64,000 nucleotides of DNA from Acidimicrobiia bacterium (GTDB lineage Bacteria > Actinomycetota > Acidimicrobiia > Spongiisociales > Spongiisociaceae). The notes under the pieces were generated by a model that saw nothing but the letters and a program-made list of their open reading frames with translations, was not told the DNA's origin and did no database searches. Numbering within the stretch: position 1 is the first letter of the stretch; each line of letters opens with the position of its first letter. Positions 11,233 through 61,799 of this stretch are shown here, in pieces. The stretch is taken from positions 2,448,416-2,512,415 of the forward strand of contig OZ241390.1 of assembly GCA_965200835.1 (NCBI GenBank), written 5' to 3'. A program made the translations under genes and the position numbers.

Positions 11233-11352
11233 GATTCGATACGACGGCCCGGACTGAGTCGCTGCGGATACCCAAACGTTGGATCAAGCATTACCCGCAC
11301 AGACGGCTGACGGAGCGGGCACGCCGACGACGCCGCACGGCCACGAACCTCT

Positions 11353-12019: not shown

Positions 12020-12306
12020 GGCTCGGTGGGTCGGTGGTCGTCAGGCCGGGCGGATGGTGTTTCGGCATCGAGCTTTCGAGCCTGCTGGTTGTCCCGCCAC
12101 TCCCGGAGGGAACGGTCGGCCAGGACCACCACCACCCCGACACCTGCGGCAGCAACCAGACCGGAAGCCAGCGCGATGACCGGACCCATGATCGGACTAC
12201 ACGAGGTGTCTGCACATCCCACCGCCGTGACCGTCCAGCCGATGAAGCCTCCCACCAGCCCGGCGCCCACCACCGGTAAGAAGAAGCTGTAGCGGAGTCG
12301 GGCCAT
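12016..12306 (-). CDS. small membrane protein (hypothetical)
   Basis: 96-aa ORF with two TM helices, adjacent to and in a different frame from 11771..12019. Confidence 0.25.
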   Translation of the reverse strand: MARLRYSFFLPVVGAGLVGGFIGWTVTAVGCADTSCSPIMGPVIALASGLVAAAGVGVVVVLADRSLREWRDNQQARKLDAETPSARPDDHRPTEP

Positions 12307-13123: not shown

Positions 13124-13648
13124 ATGGCAGTGCCGGGCATCGATCAACCGTGGCCGGGCGAGGCCGTGTTCTGTTCCGACTGCGGGACGCGCCTGGAGCG
13201 CCTCCACAGATACGGCCGGGATCGGGGCGTATGTCCCGGTTGCGGCCGGATCGATTTCCGGTCACCCTCCCTGGCGGTGGCAGTCGTCCTGCGCGACTCC
13301 CGGGGTCGGGTCCTGCTGGTCAAGCGTGGTCCGGGATCCTCTCGCCCAGGCTTGTGGTCCATTCCGGCGGGTTACATGGATTACGGGGAGGAAGTACGAG
13401 CGGCTGGTGCCCGTGAGGTGCTCGAGGAGACCGGCCTGGTCGTGGAGCTGGGTGCGCCGGTGTTCGTGGCTACCAACTTCCACGATCCCCTCAAGGTGAG
13501 CGTCTGTATCTGGTTCGACGGGAGGGTGGTGGCCGGTGACCCGGTGGCCGGATCGGACGCGGTGGAGGTGGGTTGGTTCCGCCTCGATGAGCTTCCAGAG
13601 CTTGCCTTCGATACCGATACGGAGCTCTTCTCGAAGATGGAAGGCTGA
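13124..13648 (+). CDS. NUDIX hydrolase with N-terminal zinc ribbon
   Basis: CSDCG...CPGCG zinc ribbon followed by the Nudix box GYMDYGEEVRAAGAREVLEETG. Confidence 0.8.
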   Translation: MAVPGIDQPWPGEAVFCSDCGTRLERLHRYGRDRGVCPGCGRIDFRSPSLAVAVVLRDSRGRVLLVKRGPGSSRPGLWSIPAGYMDYGEEVRAAGAREVLEETGLVVELGAPVFVATNFHDPLKVSVCIWFDGRVVAGDPVAGSDAVEVGWFRLDELPELAFDTDTELFSKMEG

Positions 13649-46055: not shown

Positions 46056-47198
46056 TTACCCCGGCCACAGCGCGGCGGCCACCTCCTGCCAGGCTGGCGC
46101 CCGGGGATCCACCAGGTCCTGATGTACCGCTCCCCGCACCTGCCTGAGCTCGGCCGGGGTGCCGGAGGACCGTGCCGCCTCCACGAACCGGCTACTCTGT
46201 TCCAGCGACACCTGGCCGTCCCGATCCCCATGTACCGCCACGATCGGTACCCCGCCCGGGAGGTTGCGGATCGGATCCACCGAGTCGGGCAAGGACCGGG
46301 GATCGTGGCCAAGGAACCGGGATAGCAGCTCGTCGAAGTCCTTCCCCAACCTTCGCAGGTCGAGCATTCCGGCCAGCGACACGAAACGGATTGGTGGCCG
46401 GGCCGCGCTGGTGGCAGCAGAAAATCCCAGTTGGCTGCCGGCCGAATGGCCGAGCACAGTAACCCGGTCGAGATCCAGTGTGAACCGGCCGGCGATCTCT
46501 TCCAGGTGGTCGAGTGCGGCCAGCGCATCCGCCATCGTCTCCCGCCATCCGCCGACCGGCGGGATGCGCCGGTACTCGATGTTCCAGGTGGCCTCGCCCC
46601 GCCCGGCCAGGTCGACCGCGATCCCGTCCAGCTGGTCGCGGGTGTAGGGCGCCGCCCAGCCACCCCCATGGATCAGCACCGTCACCGGGTGAGGTCCCGG
46701 CCCGTCCGGCAGGCGCAGGTCGCCGACTTGGTCGGGGTGCTTCCCGTAGGCCAGCGTGATGGCCGGGAGGGCGGCCCAGTAGTGGAGATGGTCGATGGCA
46801 GCTAGGTAGCCGGCAACCCCCCGGCCGAAGATCTGATAGATGCAAGCCGGTTCCGTCACCGAAATCCTGCGCCACGGTTCGCGTTCCCTCACGTTGGAGA
46901 TATGTATCTCCACGGTTGGGATCTCGGCCGCTTCGATGGCGTCATGGAGGGCGTAGCTGGTATGGGTGTAGGCACCGGGGTTGAACACCAGCCCGTCGGC
47001 GGTGTCCCGGGCGGCGTGGATAGCGTCGATCAGAGCACCCTCGTGGTTGGACTGGTAGCACTCGAGCCCATGTCCGAGCTCGACGGCCCGAACCCGGCAC
47101 ATGTCCTCGACCTCCCCGAGCGTGGTCGCTCCATATACGTCGGGCACCCTCAGTCCCAGCAGGTTGAGGTTGGGTCCGTTGAGCAGCAGGATCCGCAT
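46056..47198 (-). CDS. aroQ: fusion protein: type II 3-dehydroquinate dehydratase (AroQ) N-domain + alpha/beta-hydrolase (esterase-like) C-domain
   Basis: The first 145 aa (MRILLLNGPNLNLLGLR...HISNVREREPWRRISV) are a complete AroQ. The C-terminal 230 aa carry an HGGGW oxyanion motif, a GHSAG nucleophile elbow and Asp/His residues. Confidence 0.8.
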   Translation of the reverse strand: MRILLLNGPNLNLLGLRVPDVYGATTLGEVEDMCRVRAVELGHGLECYQSNHEGALIDAIHAARDTADGLVFNPGAYTHTSYALHDAIEAAEIPTVEIHISNVREREPWRRISVTEPACIYQIFGRGVAGYLAAIDHLHYWAALPAITLAYGKHPDQVGDLRLPDGPGPHPVTVLIHGGGWAAPYTRDQLDGIAVDLAGRGEATWNIEYRRIPPVGGWRETMADALAALDHLEEIAGRFTLDLDRVTVLGHSAGSQLGFSAATSAARPPIRFVSLAGMLDLRRLGKDFDELLSRFLGHDPRSLPDSVDPIRNLPGGVPIVAVHGDRDGQVSLEQSSRFVEAARSSGTPAELRQVRGAVHQDLVDPRAPAWQEVAAALWPG

Positions 47199-47433: not shown

Positions 47434-49235
47434 GTGTTCGCCTACGGGCGCCCCTACCGGTGGCTCCTGGTGGGGGTGCTGATCACCATCCTGATCATCT
47501 CGGTCCTGTCGGTGATCCCGCCCATCCTGATCAGGGACCTGGTGGATCGGGCCATGCCGGACGCCGACCTGGGCCGCCTGACCCTGCTCGGGGTCGGGAT
47601 GGTGGCGGTGCCGCTGGTGAACGTCTGTGTGGGCGCCCTACAACGCTGGATGTCTGCCAAGGCGGGCGAGGGCATCATCTACGACCTCCGCCGCAGTCTC
47701 TACATCCATCTCCAAGCCATGTCGCTGCGGTTCTTCACCGCCACCAAGACCGGCGAGCTGGTGTCACGCCTCGACAATGACGTGGTGGGCGCTCAGACGG
47801 CCATCACCGGCACCTTCGTGACCATCCTGTCCAATCTGGTCTCGATAGTGGCCATCCTGTTCGTGATGCTCCAGGCCGAGTGGCGGCTGACGCTGCTGGC
47901 GGTGGCCGCCTTCCCGCTGTTCGTTTACCCGGCTCGACGGGTGGCCCAGATCCTGCGCCGGATCACCCGCCGCCAGATGCAGCACAACGCCGCCATGGCC
48001 GCCATCCTCAACGAGACTTTCAACGTCAGCGGAGCCCTGCTGGTCAAGCTGTTCGGCCGCCGGCGCCAGGAGACGGAGCGGTTCTCCGAGGAGGCCCGGG
48101 CGGTGCGGGATCTGGGGGTTCGCCAAGCGGTCATCGGGCGGTGGTTCTTTGCCGCGCTCGGGGCGGTCAGCGCCATCGGGACCGCCACGGTGTTCTGGGT
48201 GGGTGGCTATCTGGTGATCCAGGGTTCCCTGAGCCTGGGCACGGTGGTCATGTTCTCCTCCCTGCTGTTCCAGCTGTATGGGCCCCTGGCCGCCATGTCG
48301 AACGCCCGGGTGGAGTTCGCTACTTCCCTGGTCTCCTTCGAGCGGGTGTTCGAGGTACTGGACCTACCCCACGACATCACGGAGGAGCCCGATCCGCTCG
48401 ACCTGCGGCCGGTCCGGGGCCGGGTCCACTTCGATAGGGTCTCCTTCCGCTACCAGGGGGATGAGCTGTCGGGCCTGGCCCCGCCCAGCGTTCCTGGGGG
48501 ATCGAGGACAGTGATGCTCCGGCGATGCAAGCCACCCGCACCTGGGCGATCGACGACCTGTCCTTCCGGATCGAACCGGGAGAGCTGGTAGCGCTGGTCG
48601 GACCATCGGGGGCCGGAAAGACCACCGTCTCCTACCTGGTTCCCCGGCTGTACGACACCGAACGGGGGCGGGTGATGATTGACGGCACCGATGTACGGCG
48701 GGCGACCCTCGCCTCGCTGGAGGAGGTGGTGGGGGTGGTGACCCAGGAGACCTTCCTGTTCCACGACACCATTGCGGCCAACCTCCGGTATGCCAAGCCC
48801 GATGCCTCCCAGGAAGAGCTCGAGGAGGCGGCTCGAGCAGCCAACATTCACGACTTCATAATGACCCTGGCCACCGGTTATGACACGGTGGTGGGGGAGC
48901 GGGGCTACCGGCTGTCGGGGGGCGAGAAGCAGCGCATCGCCCTGGCCAGGGTGATCCTCAAGGATCCGCAGATCCTGATCCTCGATGAGGCCACCGCCCA
49001 TCTCGACTCCGAGTCGGAGGCGCTCATCCACGAAGCGCTGCAGCGGGTGATGGCAGGTAGAACCTCGCTGGTGATCGCCCACCGCCTGTCCACCATCGAG
49101 TCCGCCGACCGGATCCTGGTGCTGGACGAGGGCCGGCTGGTGGAGGAGGGAACCCACACCGAGCTGCTCGAGGCCGATGGTCTATATGCCCGGTTGCGCC
49201 GGATCCGGCTCAGGCGGCGGAAAGTTCCCGCCTGA
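47434..49235 (+). pseudogene. MsbA-like ABC exporter (fused TMD-NBD) disrupted by a frameshift near 48470-48540
   Basis: ORF 47434..48591 holds a 6-TM domain up to VSFRYQGDE and then runs out of frame. ORF 48525..49235 holds the NBD ([34 protein letters not shown]). In the NBD frame the upstream sequence already reads ...[14 protein letters not shown]. Confidence 0.7.
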
Positions 49236-49248
49236 CCCGAGGGCAGGC

Positions 49249-49605
49249 TCAGGCGCCTATCAGCCGGGACACCGATGGCCATTGGTGGGCGAGCAACAGG
49301 AGCTGCCCGTCGTGGCACATCCACAGATGTTCGTTGGCCTTGAACCACTGGTGGGGTGGGGTGACCTTCAGAGCCGCCTGATCGGCCGGCTGGCTGGGTC
49401 GGTAAGCCAGCACCTCGCTGGCCGGGGCCCGGATGGTATCGACCGGGCCGACCAGCTGGTAGTCACCGAACAGGGCGCCGATGGCGTTCCATGGATCCGA
49501 TCCCCCGGTCACATCACGAAACCGGACCTCACCACAAGCCGAGCAGCCCCCCACCCTCAGGTCACCGTGGGCTCTGATCTCCGTGATGTGGTCGCCGCAC
49601 CGCAT
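49249..49605 (-). CDS. hypothetical protein
   Basis: 118-aa ORF with no recognisable domain. Weak call. Confidence 0.25.
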   Translation of the reverse strand: MRCGDHITEIRAHGDLRVGGCSACGEVRFRDVTGGSDPWNAIGALFGDYQLVGPVDTIRAPASEVLAYRPSQPADQAALKVTPPHQWFKANEHLWMCHDGQLLLLAHQWPSVSRLIGA

Positions 49606-49768: not shown

Positions 49769-52700
49769 TTGACCGAAAACACGCTTCCCACACGAGCGCC
49801 CTCGGTGGGCGAGCTGGTAAAGGTCAGGTCACGCCAGTGGCTCGTGGAGGAAGTGGGCCAGTCCGACAACCCTGATCACTCTCCCCGCGTGCCGCTCGCC
49901 TGCGTCGACGATGACAATCAGGGCCAGCGCCTCTCTGTGTTCTGGAAATACGAACCGGATCGGCTGATCCTCGAGGACGCCGGTTGGAACCACCTGGCGA
50001 CCAAGGGCTTCGACCCACCCCGGCGCTTCGCGGCCTTCCTCAACACCCTGCGGTGGAACTGCACCACGGCCACCGACCCCACCCTGCTCCAGGCGCCCTT
50101 CCGAGCGGGCATCACCATCGATGCCTACCAGATGGAACCCCTCCGCAAGGCCTTGCGCCTCCCGCGGGTGAACCTGCTGATCGCTGACGACACCGGCCTG
50201 GGCAAGACCATCGAGGCGGGCTTGATCACCCACGAGCTGCTCCTCCGCCGCAAGGTCAAGGTCATCGTGGTGGCCGCGCCCCCGTCGATGCTGGAGCAGT
50301 GGAAGGGAGAGATGGAGGATCGCTTCGGGCTGGTGTTCGAGGTGCTCGACCGGAGCTACGTCTCGAGGATGCGGCGTGAGCGAGGTTTCGGGGTCAACCC
50401 GTGGCGGACCCACAGCCGGTTCCTGGTGTCGCACCGCCTGCTGATCGACCCCTCCTACACCGACCCGATGCGGGAGTGGTTGGGTGACCTCCGCACCGGC
50501 AGCCTGCTGATCCTCGACGAGGCGCACCATGCCGCCCCCACTTCGGGCGGGCGCTACGGCATCGAGACCAAGTTCACCCGGGCAGTTCGCGATCTCGCCC
50601 ACCGCTTCGAGCATCGCCTGTTCCTGTCGGCCACGCCCCACAACGGGCACTCCAACAGCTTCTCCACCCTGCTGGAGATCCTCGACCCGTACCGGTTCAC
50701 CAGGGGAGTCAAGGTGACCGCACCCAAACAGGACCTCGCTCCGGTGATGGTGCGCCGGCTGAAGGAGGACATCCGGGCGCTGCAAGGTGGGTTCCCCAAG
50801 CGCAACGTCCAGCGGATCGAGATCGACGGCTTGCCCCACGACGCTCCGGAGTTGGCCCTGTCCCGGTTGCTGGATGAGTACGGCCGGGTACGCGATGAGC
50901 GCTACTCGCTGGAGTCGAAACGAGTCCGTTATGCGGCGAGGCTGATGGTGGTCGGCCTGCAGCAGCGCCTGCTGTCATCGATAGAGGCCTTCCATCGCAG
51001 CCTCCTGGTCCATCGCCGGACCGTGTTACGCCACTGGACCAAGGCCCACGAAGAGGTGTCTGAAGACACTCCACAAGGGCGCGGGATCACGACGAGTGAG
51101 CGCCATGACTTCGTGGCAGCTGCCGATGCGGACGATGACCGAGCCGAGTTGACTCCGGAGGAGGCGGGAGCGGACGAGCAGGCCCAGATCGAGGAGATCA
51201 ACGCGGCCTCCCTTCCCTCGCGGGACCCGGCGAGGGCAGCTTGGGAACGGGAACAGCGCCTCCTCGACCGGATGCAAGCGATAGCGAAGAAGGCCAGGCA
51301 TCATCCCGATGCCAAGACCCGCTGGCTGATCGACTGGATCCGCCGCCACCAGTGCCCGGATCTGCCCGAGCTCGGCCGACCCATCATCGGCCCTCCGCCG
51401 ACCTGGACCGACCGCCGGGTGCTGATATTCACCGAGAACCGGGAAGGCACGAAGAAGTACCTGAAGTCGATCCTCGAGCAGGCCATCTTCGGTTCCGACC
51501 GGGCGGACGACCGGATAGCGATCATCGACGGGCTGACCAGCCCGGCCCGCCGCCGGGATGTCCGGCGCCGCTTCAACGCCGATCCCGCCCGCGAGCCCCT
51601 GCGGATCCTGATCGCCACCGACGCCGCCCGGGAAGGCCTCAACCTGCAAGCCCAATGCTCGGACATGTTCCACTTCGACCTGCCCTGGAACCCCGGCCGC
51701 ATCGAGTAACGCAACGGTCGGATCGACCGAAAGCTCCAACCCGCCGATCAGGTGAACTGCCACTATTTCGTGCTGCCCCAGCGGGTTGAGGACCGGGTGC
51801 TCGATGTCCTGGTCCGCAAGACTGAAACCATCAAGCAGGAGCTTGGTAGTTTGCCGAAGGCCATCGAGGACACAGTGGAGCAGCGCCTCACGCGGTACGG
51901 GATCCGTCACCACGATGCGGAGAACCTGCGGCGCAAGGTAGAGGCCGAGTCGGTGGACCAAGCTCACGCAAGCGTGTCCGACGAGGAACTCGAAGCCGCC
52001 CGGGACCGCCGCCATGACCTCCAGGATCAGATAGAACGCTGCCGCCGGCTCCTCCAGAAGTCCCGGAGCTGGGTGAGATTTTCCCCCGAGCCCTTCCACC
52101 AGGCCATCGACTGCTCCCTGGAGCTGCTGGGTGCCCCACCCCTGGTGGAGAGCACCCAGGTCCAGGGGGGGGGGGCGTCGTCGAGTTTGGAAGTTCCCTG
52201 AGCTAGATCAGAGGGCAACCACCGATCCGAGCTGGGTTTCCACGCTCGACTCCCTGCGGGTTCCCCGCAAGATCGACCAGAAGATACCCGACTGGCGGCG
52301 CGACGCGCCCATCCGACCCCTGGTGTTCGAGGACACCGGACTGCTCGATGACCAGACCGTCCACTTCCACCTAGAGCAGCGAGTCGCTCAGAGGCTGCTG
52401 GCCCGCTTCCGATCCCAGGGCTTCATCCATCATGACCTTTCGAGGGCCTGCCTCCTGCAGTCGCGGGACGCAATATGCAGGGTGGTGCTCCTGGGACGGC
52501 TGTCGCTATACGGCCGGGGTGCTGAGCGCGTCCACGAGGAGCTCGTTCCGGTAACCGCCCGCTGGACCGATCCCGACCGGCGCTCTGGCCCCTTACGTGC
52601 CTACGCGACGGACACTGAGCGGTTCACTATGCGGCTGCTCGACGAGTCGTTGAGCTCCCAGGCTCGCTCGCCCAATCCGCAGGTCAAGCGGCGGCTGCTG

Positions 52701-53081
52701 GGCAGTGTCGCCCAGGACATCGAGGAACTACGTCCACATCTAGAGCCCCGCGCCGCCACGTTTGAGGAGCGCGCCAGAGAGCAACTGGCAGAACGCGGTA
52801 AGCGAGAGGAGCGGATGCTGCATGACACGCTCGAGCGGCACCGCACCCAGGTGGTTGCCCAACTCTCCCGTTATAAGCGCGACCTCAAGCAGCTGTCCCT
52901 GGGGTTCAACGTTGCGGAGAGGGGGCAGCTCAAAGCCGACATCCGCCACTGGGGCCGGCGCCTGGAGAAGTTCGATCAGGACTTGATGGACGAGCCCGCC
53001 CGGGTTCGCGAGCTCTACCGAGTGCGGGTCACCCGGGTGGAGCCGGTGGGCCTCGTCTACCTATGGCCGGAGGGAAACTGA
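49769..53081 (+). pseudogene. SNF2-family helicase (DISARM DrmD-like) with an in-frame TAA at 51707 and a G11-tract frameshift at 52165
   Basis: Walker A LIADDTGLGKT, DEAHH box, LSATPHNG and motif VI DLPWNPGRIE-*-RNGRIDR, with the stop in place of the conserved Gln. ORF 51752..52201 continues in the same frame. After the G11 run, the frame of ORF 52131..53081 continues for a further 300 aa. Confidence 0.7.
52165..52175 (+). repeat. G11 homopolymer tract inside the SNF2 helicase gene
   Basis: Eleven consecutive G residues read directly. Reading frames switch across it. Confidence 0.9.
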
Positions 53082-56000
53082 TGCCCAAGCCCAACCGCTA
53101 CATCACCGACCATCTCGAATGGATCGGCTTCGTTCGGCCCACCGGTCTGGTGGTGTCAGCTCCCGCCTTGGTAAAGGCGGGCGTCATCCTCAACCGTCGG
53201 GATCGGGCCGGCCAGCAACTACTCAAGGAGTGCCTACCGAACGGCTCGGGTACGACGGGATCACAACCCGACCCGGCCCCCGTACTTCCGGACTTCCCGG
53301 CCTTCGCCCGTACGGTGCTCGGCTGGAGTTTCTCTCCCAAGGGCTATGCCGGTACGGAGGAATCACCGATTCCCTCCGAGCTCGAGCTCTCCCTACCCGA
53401 TTCCGGAGGCGGGTTCCGGCCTGACTTCGCAGTTCTAGCCGACCCTGCCCGGTCCCGGCCGCCCGCCACCAACGGAAACAAGCGTGAAGGGACCGACCGG
53501 GCATCGCCCTGGCAGCTGCTGGTCAGCACCTACGAGCCCTGCGAAGACTTCGACAAGACAGCCTCGAACGGCTCGGGAGTGGAGATGTCGCCCCACAGCC
53601 GGATGGAGCGCCTGCTACGTGACACCCGGGTGCCCGCCGGGCTCCTTTTCGACGGAACGACCATTCGCCTGGTGTCCGCTCCCAAGGGCGAGAGCTCGGG
53701 ATGGATGGACTTCCAGGTGGGCGACATGATCCAGACCGCTGGGCGCCCGATCTGCACTGCGATGCGCGAGCTGCTCAGCCAGACCCGGCTCCTAGTCGTA
53801 GGGCGCGACCAGCGCCTGGCCGCGCTGCTGGAGGACAGCCGGAAGTTCCAGAACGAGGTGAGCGAGCGCCTGGCCGAGCAGGTACTGCACGCTCTGTACG
53901 AGCTACTGCGAGGTTTCCAAGCCGCCGATGACACCGCAAAAGGCCAGCTACTTGGACGCTGGCTGGCTGACCAACCCGATGAGATCTACAGGGGGTTGCT
54001 CACCGTGGTGCTGCGCCTGGTCTATCTGCTGTACGCCGAGGAACGCGACCTGCTGCCCCAGGACGAGACCTTCCTAGGGCCTACTCGGTGTCAGGCCTAT
54101 ATGAGCGTCTGCGGGCTGACGCCTCCCTCCATCCCGACACTATGGACCAGCGCTACGGAGCCTATGCCCAGCTCCTAGCCCTATGGCGCATGGTTCATGA
54201 CGGGGCCAAAGCGACCGACATGGTGATGTCGCCCAAGTATGGCGACCTCTTTTGCCCGACCGCTACCCCTTCCTCGAAGGCAGTCTGGGGGCCAGGCAGA
54301 CGACTGACCGCATCGAGGCACCGCTGGTACCCGACGGCACTATCCATCGGGTGCTGGAGAAGCTGATCGTGCTGGACTCCGAGCGCATCTCCTACCGAGC
54401 TCTCGATGTGGAGCATATCGGTTCGGTGTACGAGACCATGATGGGTTTCCGCCTCGAGAGGGCCACCGGTCGCAGCATCGCCATCAAGGCTGCCAAGAAA
54501 CACGGCGCTCCGGCCACCATCAACCTCGATGAACTGCTCTGTCAGGCTTCCAGTAGCCGGACCAAGTGGGTCAAGGATCGGACCGATCGACAACTAAGCG
54601 CAAAGGTGGGCCGGGCGGTCCGGGAAGCCACCACGCTGGAGGAGCTCCATGCCGCCCTCGATCGGGTGATCGACCGCCAGGCCACACCTGATCTCGTCCC
54701 GCCCGGCGCCATGGTGCTGCAACCCAGCCAGGAGCGCCGCCGCTCGGGTTCCCACTACACGCCCCGCAGCCTGACGGAGCCGATCGTCCGCAAGGCGCTG
54801 GACCCAATCCTGGACCGCCTCGCTGAAGAACAAGAGGGCCCACTTCGACCGGAACAAATCCTCGACCTGAAGGTGTGCGACCCGGCCATGGGCTCGGCGG
54901 CGTTCCTGGTAGAAGCGTGCCGCCAGCTGGCCGACGCCCTGATCGAAGCTTGGCGGGCCCACGAAGAAGCACCCGACCTCCCCCCGGGCGAGGACCAGCA
55001 GATCTTCGCTCGCCGACTGGTGGCTCAACGCTGCCTCTACGGAGTCGACCGCAACCCCAAGGCAGTGGACCTAGCCAAGCTGTCGTTGTGGCTCATCACC
55101 CTGTCCAAGGACCATCCGCTCACTTTCCTCGACCACGCCCTCCGCCATGGCGACTCGCTAGTGGGTCTGTCGATCCCTCAGATAAGGGCTTTCCATTGGA
55201 AAGGCAACGCTCCCGCCTTTCAGGAGGGTTTTGAGGCCCTCCGAGGACAGCAGCTACTCGCCGATGCAGCCGAGCTACGCAGGTGGATTCGCGAGGAAGG
55301 CGACACCATATCCGAGCGGGAGATGCGCGAAGCGTGGATGGAGTCGCGTGAAGTGACCGACGACCTCCGCTTGTTGGGGGACCTGGTGCTGGCGGCGTTC
55401 TTCGATGAGTCCACGCCAACGGCGCGGGAGGCACGTCGTAAAAGGTTCGCGAATGGCGTTCAGAACGGTATCGAGGGACAGTATCGCGCCTGGATGGAGG
55501 AACTTCGCAACCAGGACCGACCCCTCGCGCCACTCCACTGGCAGATCGAGTTTCCCGAGGTCTTCGACCGTCCCAATCCCGGCTTCGATGTCATAGTCGG
55601 TAATCCACCATTCGCTGGTAACAACACTATTACCGCTTCGAACATCAACCGCTATTCCCACTGGCTCAAGGAGATGCATGTTGAGAGCCACGGCAATTCG
55701 GACTTGGTAGCTCACTTCTTTCGGCGAGCCTTCAATCTGGTCCGTATGGGTGGAACCTTTGGTCTTATCGCTACCAATAGCATCTCCCAAGGTGACACAC
55801 GCTCGACGGGACTACGATGGATATGCAAGAACGGCGGAGAAATATTTTGTGTTCGCAAGCGTGTGAAGTGGCCTGGACAAGCTGCGGTAGTAGTGAGTGT
55901 ACTCCACATCAGCAGAGGTGGATTTCACGGCTACAGGCTCCTTGACGGTCACTCCGTATCAAAGATCACAGCCTTCTTATACTATCGAGGCAAGAACGAT

Positions 56001-57107
56001 GATCCGAGGTCGTTGAAAGCTAACATAGCCAAGAGTTTCTTGGGTAGTATAATACTGGGGATGGGGTTTACTTTTAACGATAACGATAAGGAGCGTGTGG
56101 CTACACCAATTAGAGAGATGGAAAGACTCCTAAGGTCTAATCCTTCGAATCAAGTGGTTATTTGTCCATATATAGGAGGGAGGGAGCTAAATAACAACCC
56201 GACCCAAAAAAACCATCGTTCCGTAATTGACTTCGGGGAGAGAAGTTTGTCAAAGTGCAGATTCCATTGGCCCGACTTACTAGAGATAGTAACCAATAAG
56301 GTTAGACCAATACGAATCAAGAAGCGTTATCCTCGTATGGCGAATGAGTGGCGGAAACATTATGCACCCCAATTAAAACTATACGATTCTATTAGGGGTT
56401 TAAAACGGGTTATGGCAACTTGTAGGGTTAGCCAACACATGTCTTTTGCCTTTCTGTCTAACGGAATGGTCTATGCAGACTCATTAGTTATATTCTCCTA
56501 TGAGAGATTCGCCGCATTCTGCGCGCTCCAAGCAAGACCTCACGAGATCTGGTCTCGATTCTTCGGATCCTCGATGAAGGACGACTTACGCTATACAGTC
56601 ACAGACTGTTTCGAGACATTTCCACTTCCGAATAGCTGGGAGAGCCGCTCCGACTTCGAATCAGCAGGTGAGGAATACTACGAGTTCCGGGCAGACCTGA
56701 TGAAATTCAACGATGAAGGCTTGACCAAGACATACAACCGATTCCATGATCCCAGCGAGAACGATGCCCGGATTATCGAACTCCGTAGACTGCATGCCGC
56801 CATGGATCGGGTTGTACTGGACGCATACGGGTGGAGTGACATCCCGACGGACTGTGAGTTCCTGCTCGACTACCCGATCGATGAGGACAACTGGGGCAGG
56901 AAGAAGAAGCCTTACCGCTACCGCTGGCCTGACGAGGTTCGTGATGAGGTGCTGGCTCGGTTGCTGGAGCTCAATGCCGAGCGGGCTGCTGAAGAAGCAC
57001 GGTCCGGTCAAGCCAACCCACCGCGTGGCCGGGGACGGCTCCAAAAGTCGCCACCCACGACTTCTCCATCCAACCAACTCACCTTGAGCCCTTCCAATGG
57101 CACCTGA
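53081..57107 (+). pseudogene. Eco57I/type IIG-like N6-adenine DNA methyltransferase (DISARM DrmMI-like / PglX-like), two frameshifts
   Basis: ORF 53063..54178 in frame A, ORF 54088..54366 in frame B (SGLYERLRADASLHPD...) and ORF 54252..57107 in frame C. Frame C carries motif I (DPAMGSAAFLVEA) and motif IV (VIVGNPPF). An ATG at 53081 overlaps the upstream TGA (TGATG). Confidence 0.75.
55740..56800 (+). other. low-GC (about 45-50%) segment inside the methyltransferase ORF
   Basis: Base composition falls sharply against about 68% flanks while the reading frame stays open (ICKNGGEIFCVRKRVKW ... NRFHDPSEND). It lies downstream of the NPPF catalytic motif, where target-recognition domains sit. Confidence 0.7.
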
Positions 57108-57120
57108 ATGGAGGTGACCC

Positions 57121-60100
57121 ATGCCTGAGCCGGACCCATCTCCCGGATGGAACGAGGCCCCCTCACCGGAGGTGCGCGACTACCTGGTCGAAGCGTTGCG
57201 GCTCGATCTGGTCGGTCCGGGGGCTGGCCATCACCTGGCCGATGAGCAGCTGCCGGGATGGGTTAGACCGTCCAGCTGGTACCTCACCGGGTTTCTGATC
57301 CCCTCGGGCACGCCACTCGAGTTGCGCTCCGACAACGACGAGGACGACCCGCTGGACGAGACTCCGGCCACCGCCGGTCTGGCTGAGGAGTCGTCGGAGG
57401 AGCGGAGGGCAGCCCGCAAGAGCTTCTTCCCGTCGTCGATCGGGCTGAGCTTCCTCGTCCCACACAAGACGGAGGTGCTGGACATAACCGTTCGCTGGGG
57501 CGACTACCAGCGGTCGACCACCGAGGGCACCGACGGCAAGCCGCTGAAGGTGTGGCAGAGGCACCCGCAGGAGCACACCGTGGCGGTCACTCTCCCGGAC
57601 CGATCCTCCGATCATGAGGTTCCGGAGTCCGGTGGGCTGGGGCTGCACATGGTCACGAGGCCAGTGGAGGTCGAGGGTCCCGACGGCCTCACCCAGCAGG
57701 TCAATTCGGTGTCGATATTCCTGGTCAACCATCGGCCCTCGCTCGGGGGCCAGCCCGGCGACGTTACGAGCCTCGGCGACGCCGATCTCGGCTACGCCTT
57801 CCAGGCCGAGCTCGAGATCACCAGTGAGGTGCCATTCGTGCCCCGTCCTGACCCCCGTGGGGCGCATGGTCGGGAGTGGGACGACCAGGTAGCCGACCTC
57901 CACTATGCGGACACACCTGAGTACGCGGTCGGCCACGGGGTATCAGCCGAGTGGGAGGTGGTGGGCGGCAAGTGCCATGTCCTGCGCACTACCTGGATCC
58001 CGGACGCCGCAGTGGCGAAGACCGAGGCCACCTCGAAGCCGGAGGCGGAGCTGTCGATGGAGGTGCTCGGAAGTCTTCCGGATGGCGACGCGGTATCGGC
58101 GGCCTTGCGGCCGCTGGTAGAGCACTACCGAGCCTGGATCGACAGCCAGTACCGGACTCTCACCGCACACACGGGTGACCGCCGGAAGACCGCGGGGGAG
58201 CTATTGAGTCACGCCCGCGGGGCCGCCGACCGTATCGAGCGGGGGATCGACCTGCTGGTTACCGACCCGGACGCCCTCGACGCCTTTCGGGTGGCCAACC
58301 GGGCCGTGGCCACTGCCTTGCAGAGGAGGATCGGCTCCCCACCTGAGGAGTCGGGATGGCGCTGGTATCCATTCCAGCTGGCGTTCATCCTGCTCAACCT
58401 CCCCGGTCTGGGCGATCCGCAACATCCCGAGCGCCCAGTGGTCGACCTCCTCTTTTTCCCGACCGGCGGCGGCAAGACCGAGGCCTATCTGGGTCTGGCG
58501 GCCTTCACCATGGTGCTGAGACGCTTGCGGGAACCCGGCCATGAGGGCCGGCAAGGGGCAGGCGTCACCGTGATCATGCGTTACACGCTCTGGCTCTTGA
58601 CCCTGGATCAGCTGGCCCGGGCCTCCGGCCTGGTGTGCGCGCTGGAACTGGAGCGCCAGCTCGATCCCGACCGCTATGGAACCTGGCCGTTCGAGATCGG
58701 CCTGTGGGTGGGCAAGGCGGCCACCCCCAACGCGATGGGTCGGGTGCGTGACGGACGGCAGGACACGGCCCGGGCCAAGACCCGCCGATACAAGGCCAAT
58801 CCGGGATACCACCCCCTGCCCATTCCCCTCGAGACCTGCCCGTGGTGCGGTCAGCAGTTCGAGCCGGCGAGCTTCACGCTGCTGCCCGACGACGAGCTGC
58901 GCATCGTGTGCCTCAACTTCGAGTGTGACTTCCAAGGGGACAACCCGCTGCCGATCGTGGCGGTGGACGATCCCATCTACCGGCGTCTGCCTGCCTTCCT
59001 GATCGCCACGGTCGACAAGTTCGCCTCCCTGCCCTGGACGGCCCGCACCGGCCTGTTGCTCGGCGGCGCCGACCGCATCGACGCCAAGGGCTACTACGGA
59101 GCGGCCGATCCCGGAATCGGTCGCCCGCTCGACCACCCGCTACTGGCCCCTGACCTGATCATCCAGGACGAGCTGCACCTGATATCAGGGCCCTTGGGCA
59201 CCATGGCCGGCCTGTACGAGACGATCATCGAAGCCTTATCTGTCCAGGCCAGCGAGCGGGCCGGTCATCGTCCAGAGGGCCGCCGGTCGCCGCAGGTACG
59301 GCCCAAGATCGTGGCCTCCACTGCAACAGTCCGCCAGGCGCAGAGTCAGGTCCAGGCCCTGTTCGCCCGGTCGGCCACCCGGGTGTTCCCACCCCCAGGG
59401 CCGGACCGGAAGGATTCGTTCTTCGCCGAGACTGTCCCCACCACCCAGGTACCCGGCCGCTTGTATCTCGGTATCGCGGCGCCGGGACGGAGTCCCAAAG
59501 TCCTGATGCGCCGGGTCTGGCTGGCCCTGATGGGATCCGCCGAGCGGGCCTACCGAGACGCCGGCGGGCGCAAGAACCGGGACAACCCGGCCGATCCCTA
59601 CATGACCGTGCTGGGTTACTTCAACAGCCTGCGGGAGCTGGGTGGGGCGCGCCGCATCCTCGAGGAGGAGGTCCGCAACACCGTCAAGACCTACGGGCGT
59701 CGCCGCCGGATCGGCCAGTCCTTCCAGGAAGCACCGTTCCGGGATCGGACCAGCTTCGCGGAGGTGGTGGAGCTCACCTCCCGGGTTCCGACCGGCAAGG
59801 TGGCCGAGGCGAGACGGCGGCTGGGATGCGCCAAGCACGAGCAGGACAGCGTGGACAGCGCTATCGCCACCAACATGATCTCGGTGGGTCTCGACATCCC
59901 CCGGCTCGGGCTGATGGTGGTAGTCGGCCAGCCCAAGACCCACTCCGAATACATCCAGGCCACCAGCCGGGTGGGGCGGGACGATCAGCGGCCGGGACTG
60001 GTGGTGACCTTGCTCAACATGCACAAACCCCGCGACCGATCCCACTACGAGCGCTTCCGTCACTACCACGAGACCTTCTACCGCTCCGTGGAGGTGTCCA

Positions 60101-61799
60101 GCGTCACGCCCTTCTCGGCCAGGGCCCTCGACCGCGGGCTGGCCGGCGCACTGGTGGGCTACGCCCGCCATGCGGAAGGAGTGCTCACGCCGGCCGAGGG
60201 AGTCGAGGAACTCGAAGCGGTCAGGGTTACGGTCGAACGACAACTCCGGCAGGTACTGCTGCAGCGAGTGGACCGCCAGCCCTTCCAATACGAGACCGAG
60301 CACACCGAAAGGCGCCGGAGCGTGACCGCCCGGGTGGTGGAACTACTCGACTCGTGGTTGAAAGTGGTGGAGGGCTACCACCAGGTAAACAGCCCGGTGA
60401 GGTATCAGAAGTACGAGGGGAAAGCGGCCGCCAAACCACTGTTGCGGGAGATGCTCGACCAGGACTTCGAGACCGCCCACCATCGCAAGTTCCGAGCCAA
60501 CCGCTCCCTACGTGATGTCGAGCCGGAGGTGAACCTGTATATCAGGCCGCTCACCGCCTCTCTCGGCGACTCTACGAGGCCACCGAGCTCAGCGACTGGC
60601 CGCTCGGTCTGTGCCTGGGCAGGCGGCCGTGGCTGGGTCGCGGCACCGACGAGGATTGCACGCTACCGAGCCGGTTGCTCATCCGCACCGCCTCCAACGC
60701 CTACTTTCCCCAGGTGGTCAGCGTCCTGTCGCTGCCTGATCGGGGCACCGATCTGGACCGGGTGGTGGGGGAGCTCTGGGAGGACCTTCAGCTGGTGGAC
60801 CGCTTGAGCCATCTCCGCTTCCTCAAGAAGAAGGCGAAGGTAAGCGGGGGACTGGCTGGCTTTGCCGACGCTGAGGTGCTGAAGGCGATCCAACGCCGCA
60901 AGGGCGGGTCCGCGGGCGACCGCTCCGTCAAGGAGGCCGAGCTCGAGGAACTGCTGGCCGCGCCGGAAGGATTCGGCGACCGGGGACAGGTCGATCCGAA
61001 CTTCCACGCCCGGCGCCTGCCACAGAGTGCCTGGAGATCCCCGCGGTCGAAGCTGAGCGGTGGAGTAGAGGGAGTGATCCACCTCCACCGGTTGCGCGAG
61101 GTGCTGGCCCTGATCGGATTCACCCGCTTCGAGGCCGTTATCCGTGACATCCACGGCGAGTACGACACCGATGTCGAGCGGGCCGGCATCGCCCTCGATC
61201 CCAGCTGGTTTCCGGCGATCGAGAACCGTGACGAAGGCCTGTTCGCCTACCTGAGACCGGAGGAGGTCGACAGGTGGTTACGGAGACGACCCGCGCAAAC
61301 CCGGATAGACGACCTTCGCAACCGGCACGAGACCGGCCAGCAAGGCCGTAAGCATCCCTGGCCCTTCCCCGGAGGCCCCTACATCCTGTTGCACACGCTC
61401 GCACACCTGCTCATCCAGTGGCTGGCCATGCGTTGCGGCTACCCGGCCAGCTCCATCCGCGAGCGGATCTATGTGGAAGGTCAGCGCTATGGCCTGCTCC
61501 TCTACACCGGATCTCCCGACGCCGAAGGGACCCTGGGCGGCCTCGTCCAGCAAGCCCGCCACTTCGAGGACCATCTGGCCTATGCGCTTCGGGTGGGCGA
61601 GCTTTGCTCCAACGACCCGATCTGTGCCCAGCACGGAGCTGGCACCGCCCTCGAGGAGGGTCACCTGCACGGTGCCGCCTGCCATGCTTGCACGCTGATA
61701 GCCGAGACCACCTGCGAGATGCGCAACGACTACCTCGACCGGGCGCTGGTAGTCCCGACCCTCGGCTCGGACGGTGCCGCCTTCTTTCCGTCCCCCTGA
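57121..61799 (+). pseudogene. large DEAH-box helicase with C-terminal DUF1998/MZB zinc-binding domain (DISARM DrmA+DrmB-like in one frame), one frameshift near 60540-60575
   Basis: ORF 57121..60807 has a 440-aa N-terminal domain, Walker A FFPTGGGKTEAYL, IIQDELHLISG, an inserted CPWCG...CLNFEC zinc ribbon and motif VI QATSRVGRD. ORF 60675..61799 has the DUF1998 Cys cluster CSNDPICAQH...GAACHACT. GC3 tracks frame 0 until about 60575 and frame +2 from about 60543. An SD GGAGGTGA lies 6 nt upstream. Confidence 0.7.

Follow-up and report, generated by a model that had tools for sequence, protein, structure and literature searches.

Class 1 DISARM systems, which defend against phages, consist of drmD, drmMI, drmA, drmB and drmC. 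In the Pgl (BREX-type) system of Streptomyces coelicolor, changes in the length of a G tract in pglX act as a switch at frequencies of 1e-2 to 1e-4 (PMC4365076), and slipped-strand mispairing in a homopolymer inside a restriction-modification gene eliminates or restores its expression (PMC12707154). Phase-variable Type I, Type III ("phasevarion") and Type IIG systems carry simple-sequence repeats in mod, hsd and IIG genes, mainly in host-adapted pathogens. In a full-text literature search, no paper mentioned DrmD together with the term phase-variable. Here, we describe a run of 11 G in the drmD gene of a class 1 DISARM operon, located in a stretch of 64,000 nucleotides (the window) of contig OZ241390.1 of an Acidimicrobiia bacterium (assembly GCA_965200835.1, positions 2,448,416 to 2,512,415). 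The run is probably a genuine hypermutable G tract in a poorly conserved linker of drmD, within an operon that has become pseudogenised, and its length is now drifting.

The window shares with class 1 DISARM the gene order drmD-drmMI-drmA-drmB and strong profile matches to all four genes. Unlike a working class 1 system, it is without drmC, and each of the remaining genes carries at least one disabling lesion, indicating that the locus is a DISARM remnant and not a working system. Like the pglX tract, the G run is a G homopolymer inside a gene of a defence system that relies on methylation, the frame shifts with its length, and the genome is rich in GC. The closest relatives of the DISARM gene are actinobacterial (Acidimicrobiia). 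The Pgl tract, however, is part of the methyltransferase gene, and its switching has been demonstrated by experiment; the tract of the window belongs to the gene of the SNF2 helicase, for which no ON allele has been recorded, within an operon that other lesions have inactivated. The locus also resembles the homopolymer-frameshifted pseudogenes of host-restricted symbionts, with slippage indels, a nonsense codon and a deletion in a non-essential island, but it differs from them in that the housekeeping genes of the window are intact and decay is confined to one transporter and the defence island.

The tract consists of exactly 11 consecutive G at 52165-52175 on the forward strand. All other homopolymers of the window are 7 nt long or shorter. 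In the upstream frame, whose codons start at positions 2 mod 3, the sequence reads STQVQGGGASSSLEVP up to a stop at 52199-52201 (a longer reading to the same stop is ESTQVQGGGASSSLEVP). The next frame, that of the open reading frame (ORF) 52131..53081, reads GGGRRRVWKFPELDQ, also given as GGGRRRVWKFPELDQRATTDPSW, and is open to 53081. A frame plot of the GC content at third codon positions showed the phase change exactly at the G run, so that the sequence, the frame reading and the plot all bear out the preliminary description, which had placed the crossing of the two frames at this tract. The helicase frame was said there to end 25 codons further on; the stop actually lies 8 codons past the run, about 23 past the start of the overlapping ORF. 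The same description held that a change of one G would fuse the frames. This is correct for the removal of one G (G10), which joined the two frames into 1103 codons, but not for an addition, because the frame is restored by -1 or +2 G only. The in-frame lengths are G7, G10 and G13; relative to G10, G11 is a +1 frame error, and G9 would be a -1 error.

At least one G11 was present in 33 of 100 dinucleotide-preserving shuffles of the window, indicating that base composition alone does not make such a run rare. The run-length distribution of the window itself is different. There are 22 G/C runs of length 6, one of length 7 against 21.7 expected under independence, and none of lengths 8-10 against approximately 10 expected, followed by the single run of 11. 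Long G/C runs are thus strongly depleted in the window, and G11 is an extreme outlier against this background.

The reading frames on both sides of the tract belong to one gene. For the G10 reconstruction, residues 8-1102 aligned to positions 10-1036 of the 1040-position PADLOC DrmD profile PDLC02621 (E = 1e-298), and the Pfam domains SNF2-rel_dom and Helicase_C were found. Homologues number in the thousands; the best 120 are single proteins of approximately 1054-1466 aa (most 1080-1145 aa) with 65-78% identity, full-length homologues of 1078-1145 aa cover 100% of the reconstruction, and the NCBI name carried by homologues is "DISARM system SNF2-like helicase DrmD". The alignment of the downstream ORF to DrmD C-termini, proposed in the preliminary description as a check, was carried out: all 60 aligned homologues pass the junction unbroken, and the 300 residues past the run are conserved, with many invariant positions. 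Because all close homologues are single fused proteins, what had been described as a C-terminal extension is, as judged from these alignments, the normal C-terminal domain of DrmD. The earlier proposal that both ORFs are parts of one DrmD-sized protein of roughly 1100 aa is therefore upheld by the 1103-aa reconstruction and its end-to-end profile match.

In the window, drmD is divided into three pieces on the forward strand: an N-terminal piece with the SNF2 ATPase lobes, ending at a premature TAA (49769..51709; Pfam, PADLOC), a middle ORF in the same frame, which stops 8 codons past the tract (51710..52201), and the C-terminal domain of approximately 300 aa in the next frame (52176..53081; PADLOC, homologue alignment). 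The annotation of the source genome gives pieces of 634 aa (GTG at 49805), 149 aa (GTG at 51752) and 252 aa, and the 634-aa N-terminal product is recorded exactly in the protein database. Downstream of the G run, 316 codons are stop-free and 70-78% identical to the homologues. These results indicate that the decay of the gene is recent.

The tract lies in a linker between two conserved blocks, LLGAPPLxE and FPxLxxR..DPSW, whose residues are poorly conserved among 60 homologues. In the 45 relatives from genome collections in which the linker could be extracted, it was exactly 33 nt long with no homopolymer in 41; three of the others carry a poly-C tract of their own, and one has a linker of 72 nt. 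The linker of the window is 43 nt long, indicating that the tract arose specifically in this lineage, by expansion within a variable loop. The long homopolymer thus occupies a length-tolerant position in a coding sequence, flanked by conserved blocks, as in a contingency locus. Structure prediction with AlphaFold2 for the closest intact homologue gave a poor model (mean pLDDT 56, pTM 0.35), which weakly suggests that the tract site maps to a turn between two short strands. An exact search of the Joint Genome Institute (JGI) metagenomes with the 22-nt left flank of the tract gave no match.

The tract length differs between closely related populations. The 252-aa C-terminal fragment (100% identical) was found in the source genome and in three Logan contigs (L064, L065 and L066) from three different sequencing runs. 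Over 2.2-7 kb, these contigs share 99.9% identity with the window; each has G9 in place of G11, with both lengths taken from consensus sequences only. The length variation anticipated in the preliminary description, a further property of contingency loci when seen between close relatives, was thus observed at this level. Among 5.8 billion proteins, no allele of approximately 100% identity was found that spans the junction in frame or is without the TAA. Neither ON and OFF alleles nor a length that gives a complete ORF was found, since G10 still leaves the TAA; because no run length yields a working gene, the tract does not qualify as a contingency locus.

The in-frame TAA at 51707-51709 was identified by frame reading and compared with 127 homologous loci. 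It takes the place of the invariant Gln in SNF2 motif VI, between WNPGRIE and RNGRIDR, and the codon at this position is CAG or CAA in all 127. The helicase frame of the preliminary description is broken by this codon, which had been overlooked. The same TAA is present in L064, L065 and L066. Reassignment of TAA as a sense codon was ruled out, as TAA ends a normal gene elsewhere in the window.

The gene downstream of drmD is drmMI (53063..57107, forward strand; PADLOC, Pfam, tblastn), which encodes an N6-adenine methyltransferase of the MmeI/Eco57I-like type and is spread over three frames. The PADLOC DrmMI profile PDLC02643 matched two large pieces (E = 2e-284 and 7e-64), the Pfam domains Eco57I, MmeI_Mtase and MmeI_TRD were found, and tblastn with an intact DrmMI ran through frames 2, 1 and 3 of the window in succession. 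The -1 frameshifts lie at approximately 54077-54081 (GGGG to GGG) and 54250-54257 (CCCC to CCC). Both are also present in L064, which has an additional 1-nt deletion at 54328.

For drmA (57121..60807, forward strand; PADLOC DrmA, E = 1e-270; tblastn with the DrmA of locus L015), the homology stops at approximately 60567-60576; the native stop is lost, and the ORF continues for 77 codons into drmB sequence. The adjoining drmB (60528..61799, forward strand; Pfam MZB; PADLOC DrmB, E = 5e-52) is without its first 175-200 codons, and matches from residue 174 or 202 to the end of DrmB proteins of 597 or 612 aa. These limits of homology indicate that approximately 0.55 kb, including the drmA stop and the 5' end of drmB, was deleted. 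No DrmC/PLD gene was found beside the operon, and the tested neighbours included no PADLOC DrmC match. The genes past drmB, on the other strand, encode a transglutaminase and an Alpha-E protein.

The neighbours DrmMI, DrmA and DrmB identify the locus as a class 1 DISARM operon, in which DrmD, DrmMI, and DrmA together with DrmB (DUF1998/MZB) are present, DrmC is absent, and the reading frames are interrupted by the TAA, the G tract, the drmMI frameshifts and the drmA/drmB deletion. At least two independent disabling mutations were reproduced in independent data (the window and L064-L066), as expected of pseudogenes. The homology of the locus to its relatives begins at the drmD start codon, which identifies the operon as an island. 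Its borders were searched for tRNA genes, Rfam families and flanking repeats, and none was found.

Two further observations concern drmMI. At 55600-56700, exactly over the region resembling MmeI_TRD, the GC content falls to 0.42-0.52 in a genome of 65% GC, and this drop suggests, from composition, that the specificity domain may have been swapped recently. In addition, the window and L064 differ by four substitutions, three of which are located in this same interval.

The quality of the assembly was assessed outside the island. Against L067, a 115-kb contig from another run, the window showed 8 substitutions and no indels over 21.8 kb of a cell-division/cell-wall gene cluster, and against L001, it showed 4 substitutions and 1 indel over 9.4 kb. 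Most lesions of the defence island were reproduced in independent data, and the absence of indels over 21.8 kb indicates that the island lesions are not general assembly noise. The single indel (at 48478) lies in an ABC exporter (47434-49235), with C4 at 48474-48482 against C5 in L001, which is 99.95% identical. The transporter is intact in L001 (600 aa), whereas the copy in the window is split into a membrane part and an ATPase part; the C4 may be a mutation private to the window or one of the rare errors of the consensus. On the reverse strand, at 46056-47198, a single ORF of 380 aa joins a type II dehydroquinase to an alpha/beta-hydrolase (BD-FAE), an unusual fusion that was called in the same way in other assemblies.

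Similar tracts were found in the DISARM loci of relatives. The closest drmD loci are from metagenome-assembled genomes (MAGs) of Acidimicrobiia and other phyla, many of which are named as sponge symbionts (Candidatus Spongiisocius, Candidatus Poriferisodalis), and the drmD relatives make it probable that the source organism is also a sponge symbiont. The survey of tracts covered 31 loci from long-read MAGs, and all tract-bearing loci are of this kind. Four acidimicrobiial loci form a poly-C clade, with the tract in the same drmD linker, approximately 25 nt upstream of the site in the window: C9 in L039 (12357-12365), C10 in L042 (12357-12366), C10 in L152 (2275-2284) and C8 in L153 (3823-3830). 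All four assemblies are out of frame, each by exactly one base. Downstream of the tract, in the corrected frame, the ratio of nonsynonymous to synonymous divergence (dN/dS) was 0.21-0.26 at a dS of approximately 0.25, compared with 0.12 upstream of the tract and 0.20 in drmMI. Purifying selection past the tract would be the pattern of a maintained switchable gene, and would also be expected if all of the consensus counts were one base off.

Other tracts differ in gene and position. For drmD, L051 carries C11 in a variable insert (11262-11272), which is out of frame and is the only lesion, and the truncated drmD of L057 carries G9 in frame. The PPPP that one homologue (P0066) has where L051 carries its tract was ruled out as a homopolymer because its codons are mixed. 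For drmMI, L015 carries an in-frame G12 (13500-13511) in an intact gene. In L022, C18 (15655-15672) lies out of frame just before the S-adenosylmethionine-binding motif, and in L035, C17 (20382-20398) lies out of frame in the C-terminal part; each is the only break found in its drmMI. A non-coding C11 is located in L039 (9949-9959), 48 nt upstream of the drmD start and adjoining a TAGACT box similar to a -10 element. L057 also has a G11 (12285-12295) inside TTGACA-N16-TAGACT, upstream of a non-DISARM gene for a solute-binding protein.

Several of these tracts have AT-rich flanks in genes of 60-64% GC (L015, 13470-13560; L039 and L042, 12366-12410), as in GAAATGTT-G12-TTACCTTGAATGTCATGAAATATATCAAATATTCC. 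Extra partial copies of the drmMI C-terminus were present downstream of the full gene in L035 (21055-21693) and L007 (20917-21264), which could be spare specificity cassettes or decay products. The drmD of L052, the second drmD locus of OY760694.1 (5429-12810), is broken by approximately 4 kb of foreign sequence and by frameshifts. This interruption, together with the drmA frameshifts in L039 and L042, indicates that DISARM decay is common in these genomes.

G/C tracts of at least 9 were found 7 times inside and 3 times outside the DISARM coding sequence (DISARM-homologous sequence makes up 41% of the bases; p = 0.06; L039 and L042 are not independent), so that the enrichment is suggestive only. 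A further 80 drmD loci from JGI metagenomes had no such tract, which fits a trait specific to symbionts, a bias of short-read assembly or a bias to the best full-length matches.

Taken together, these results favour a hypermutable tract whose slippage no longer has consequences. The G run is long enough for frequent strand slippage in replication, which would alter its length and is the probable cause of the difference between G11 and G9. The run length modulo 3 would set whether the ATPase core joins the conserved 300-aa C-terminal domain, and both the G11 of the window and the G9 of the three assemblies would truncate DrmD. The tract may be a relic of a former contingency switch or an expansion that followed the loss of selection. 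It controls nothing in this lineage, because the operon is a cluster of pseudogenes.

Some observations weigh against this interpretation. Either observed length, G11 or G9, may be a G10 that was miscounted in the consensus, the exact G count in any single consensus is uncertain, and the private 1-nt deletion in the ABC transporter means that occasional homopolymer errors in the window assembly are possible. In addition, L064-L066 all begin at 51677, which would allow a C/T polymorphism at 51707, and a subpopulation with a working copy is possible. Four unrelated drmD genes share the 30-mer at 51677-51706, and a branch in the assembly graph with another drmD explains the contig start equally well, so that the start is no firm sign of such a polymorphism. 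Contigs of other runs end at 49541 (L001) or start at 51677 (L064-L066), leaving the conserved 5' two-thirds of drmD unassembled there; these breaks are likely to reflect graph branching between co-resident drmD genes, and strain-variable presence of the island is another possible cause.

The preliminary description had offered two explanations, a phase-variable helicase or a miscounted run. The tract length does vary, but neither length is in frame, and the other lesions kill the gene. A pure miscount, in which the run is G10 everywhere and both G11 and G9 are consensus errors, is unlikely, although G11 and G9 are each exactly one base from G10, as is each of the four poly-C assemblies from its own frame. 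Most of the error that remains in long-read consensus sequences occurs at long homopolymers, and the window has its private C4/C5 indel in a transporter that is probably functional. Conversely, the same G9 was obtained in three separate runs, a miscount would require errors of opposite sign in different data sets, and no indel was seen in 21.8 kb of housekeeping genes. Correcting the count would not make drmD intact, because with G10 the TAA and the other operon lesions remain, and the biological conclusion would be unchanged. Active phase variation, with the G run as a working on/off switch of a functional DISARM, is highly improbable here and is already contradicted for this genome. A long G tract in a tolerant loop of a defence gene, with a length that differs between near-identical populations, would suit such a switch, as would the precedent of pglX (PMC4365076) and the relatives in which a tract is the only lesion in an otherwise intact operon. 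The motif VI TAA, the two drmMI frameshifts in short runs and the 0.55-kb drmA/drmB deletion, however, cannot be reversed by slippage at the G run, which therefore cannot switch the system on, and the 5.8 billion proteins contained no ON allele.

Two further explanations concern the origin of the tract and its effect on expression. That the run was never a switch and grew by slippage only after the operon was inactivated is conceivable but doubtful. Each of the other small lesions removes one nucleotide from a short G/C run (C5 to C4, G4 to G3 and C4 to C3), indicating an indel spectrum dominated by slippage; the tract is absent at its exact site from all relatives, and the enrichment in DISARM coding sequence is weak. 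Drift from approximately G4 to G9-11 in a recently decayed gene would nevertheless be unusual, the C-terminal frame is free of stops, the 64 kb contain no second run longer than 7, and related lineages retain tracts in the drmD linker together with purifying selection on the frame past the tract. The least probable of these explanations is a rescue at the RNA level, in which transcription slips or the ribosome shifts frame at the G run, so that some products are read in the correct frame. In insect endosymbionts, frameshifted genes are rescued when the polymerase slips at long homopolymers, and such rescue would account for the single-base displacement in all assemblies of the window locus and of the poly-C clade, and for the purifying selection on the downstream frame of that clade. 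Known productive slippage, however, uses A/T runs, whereas G/C runs slip poorly in elongation, and the upstream TAA of the window would still end translation. A hypermutable tract in a pseudogenised operon thus remains the explanation that we regard as probable.

The feature of the window is an ordinary, instructive case of defence-island decay. For annotation, this means that a single dead DISARM operon accounts for the three helicase ORFs, the split methyltransferase and the short DrmB, all of them fragments; neither an active defence system nor a new kind of split helicase should be recorded here. The wider pattern of tracts in symbiont DISARM deserves more attention. In the relatives, the recurrence of tracts, sometimes as the sole lesion, hints from sequence comparison that DISARM may be phase-variable elsewhere. 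We tentatively propose, at somewhat less than even confidence, that homopolymer contingency tracts, which arose independently at various permissive sites in drmD, in drmMI and in the promoter, commonly control DISARM in symbionts of marine invertebrates (mostly sponges), and that the tract of the window is a relic of one. If the recurrent tracts are real switches, a costly methylation-based defence would be a bet-hedging trait in the dense, phage-rich microbiomes of sponges, and censuses of defence systems that rely on intact ORFs would systematically overlook systems in the OFF state.

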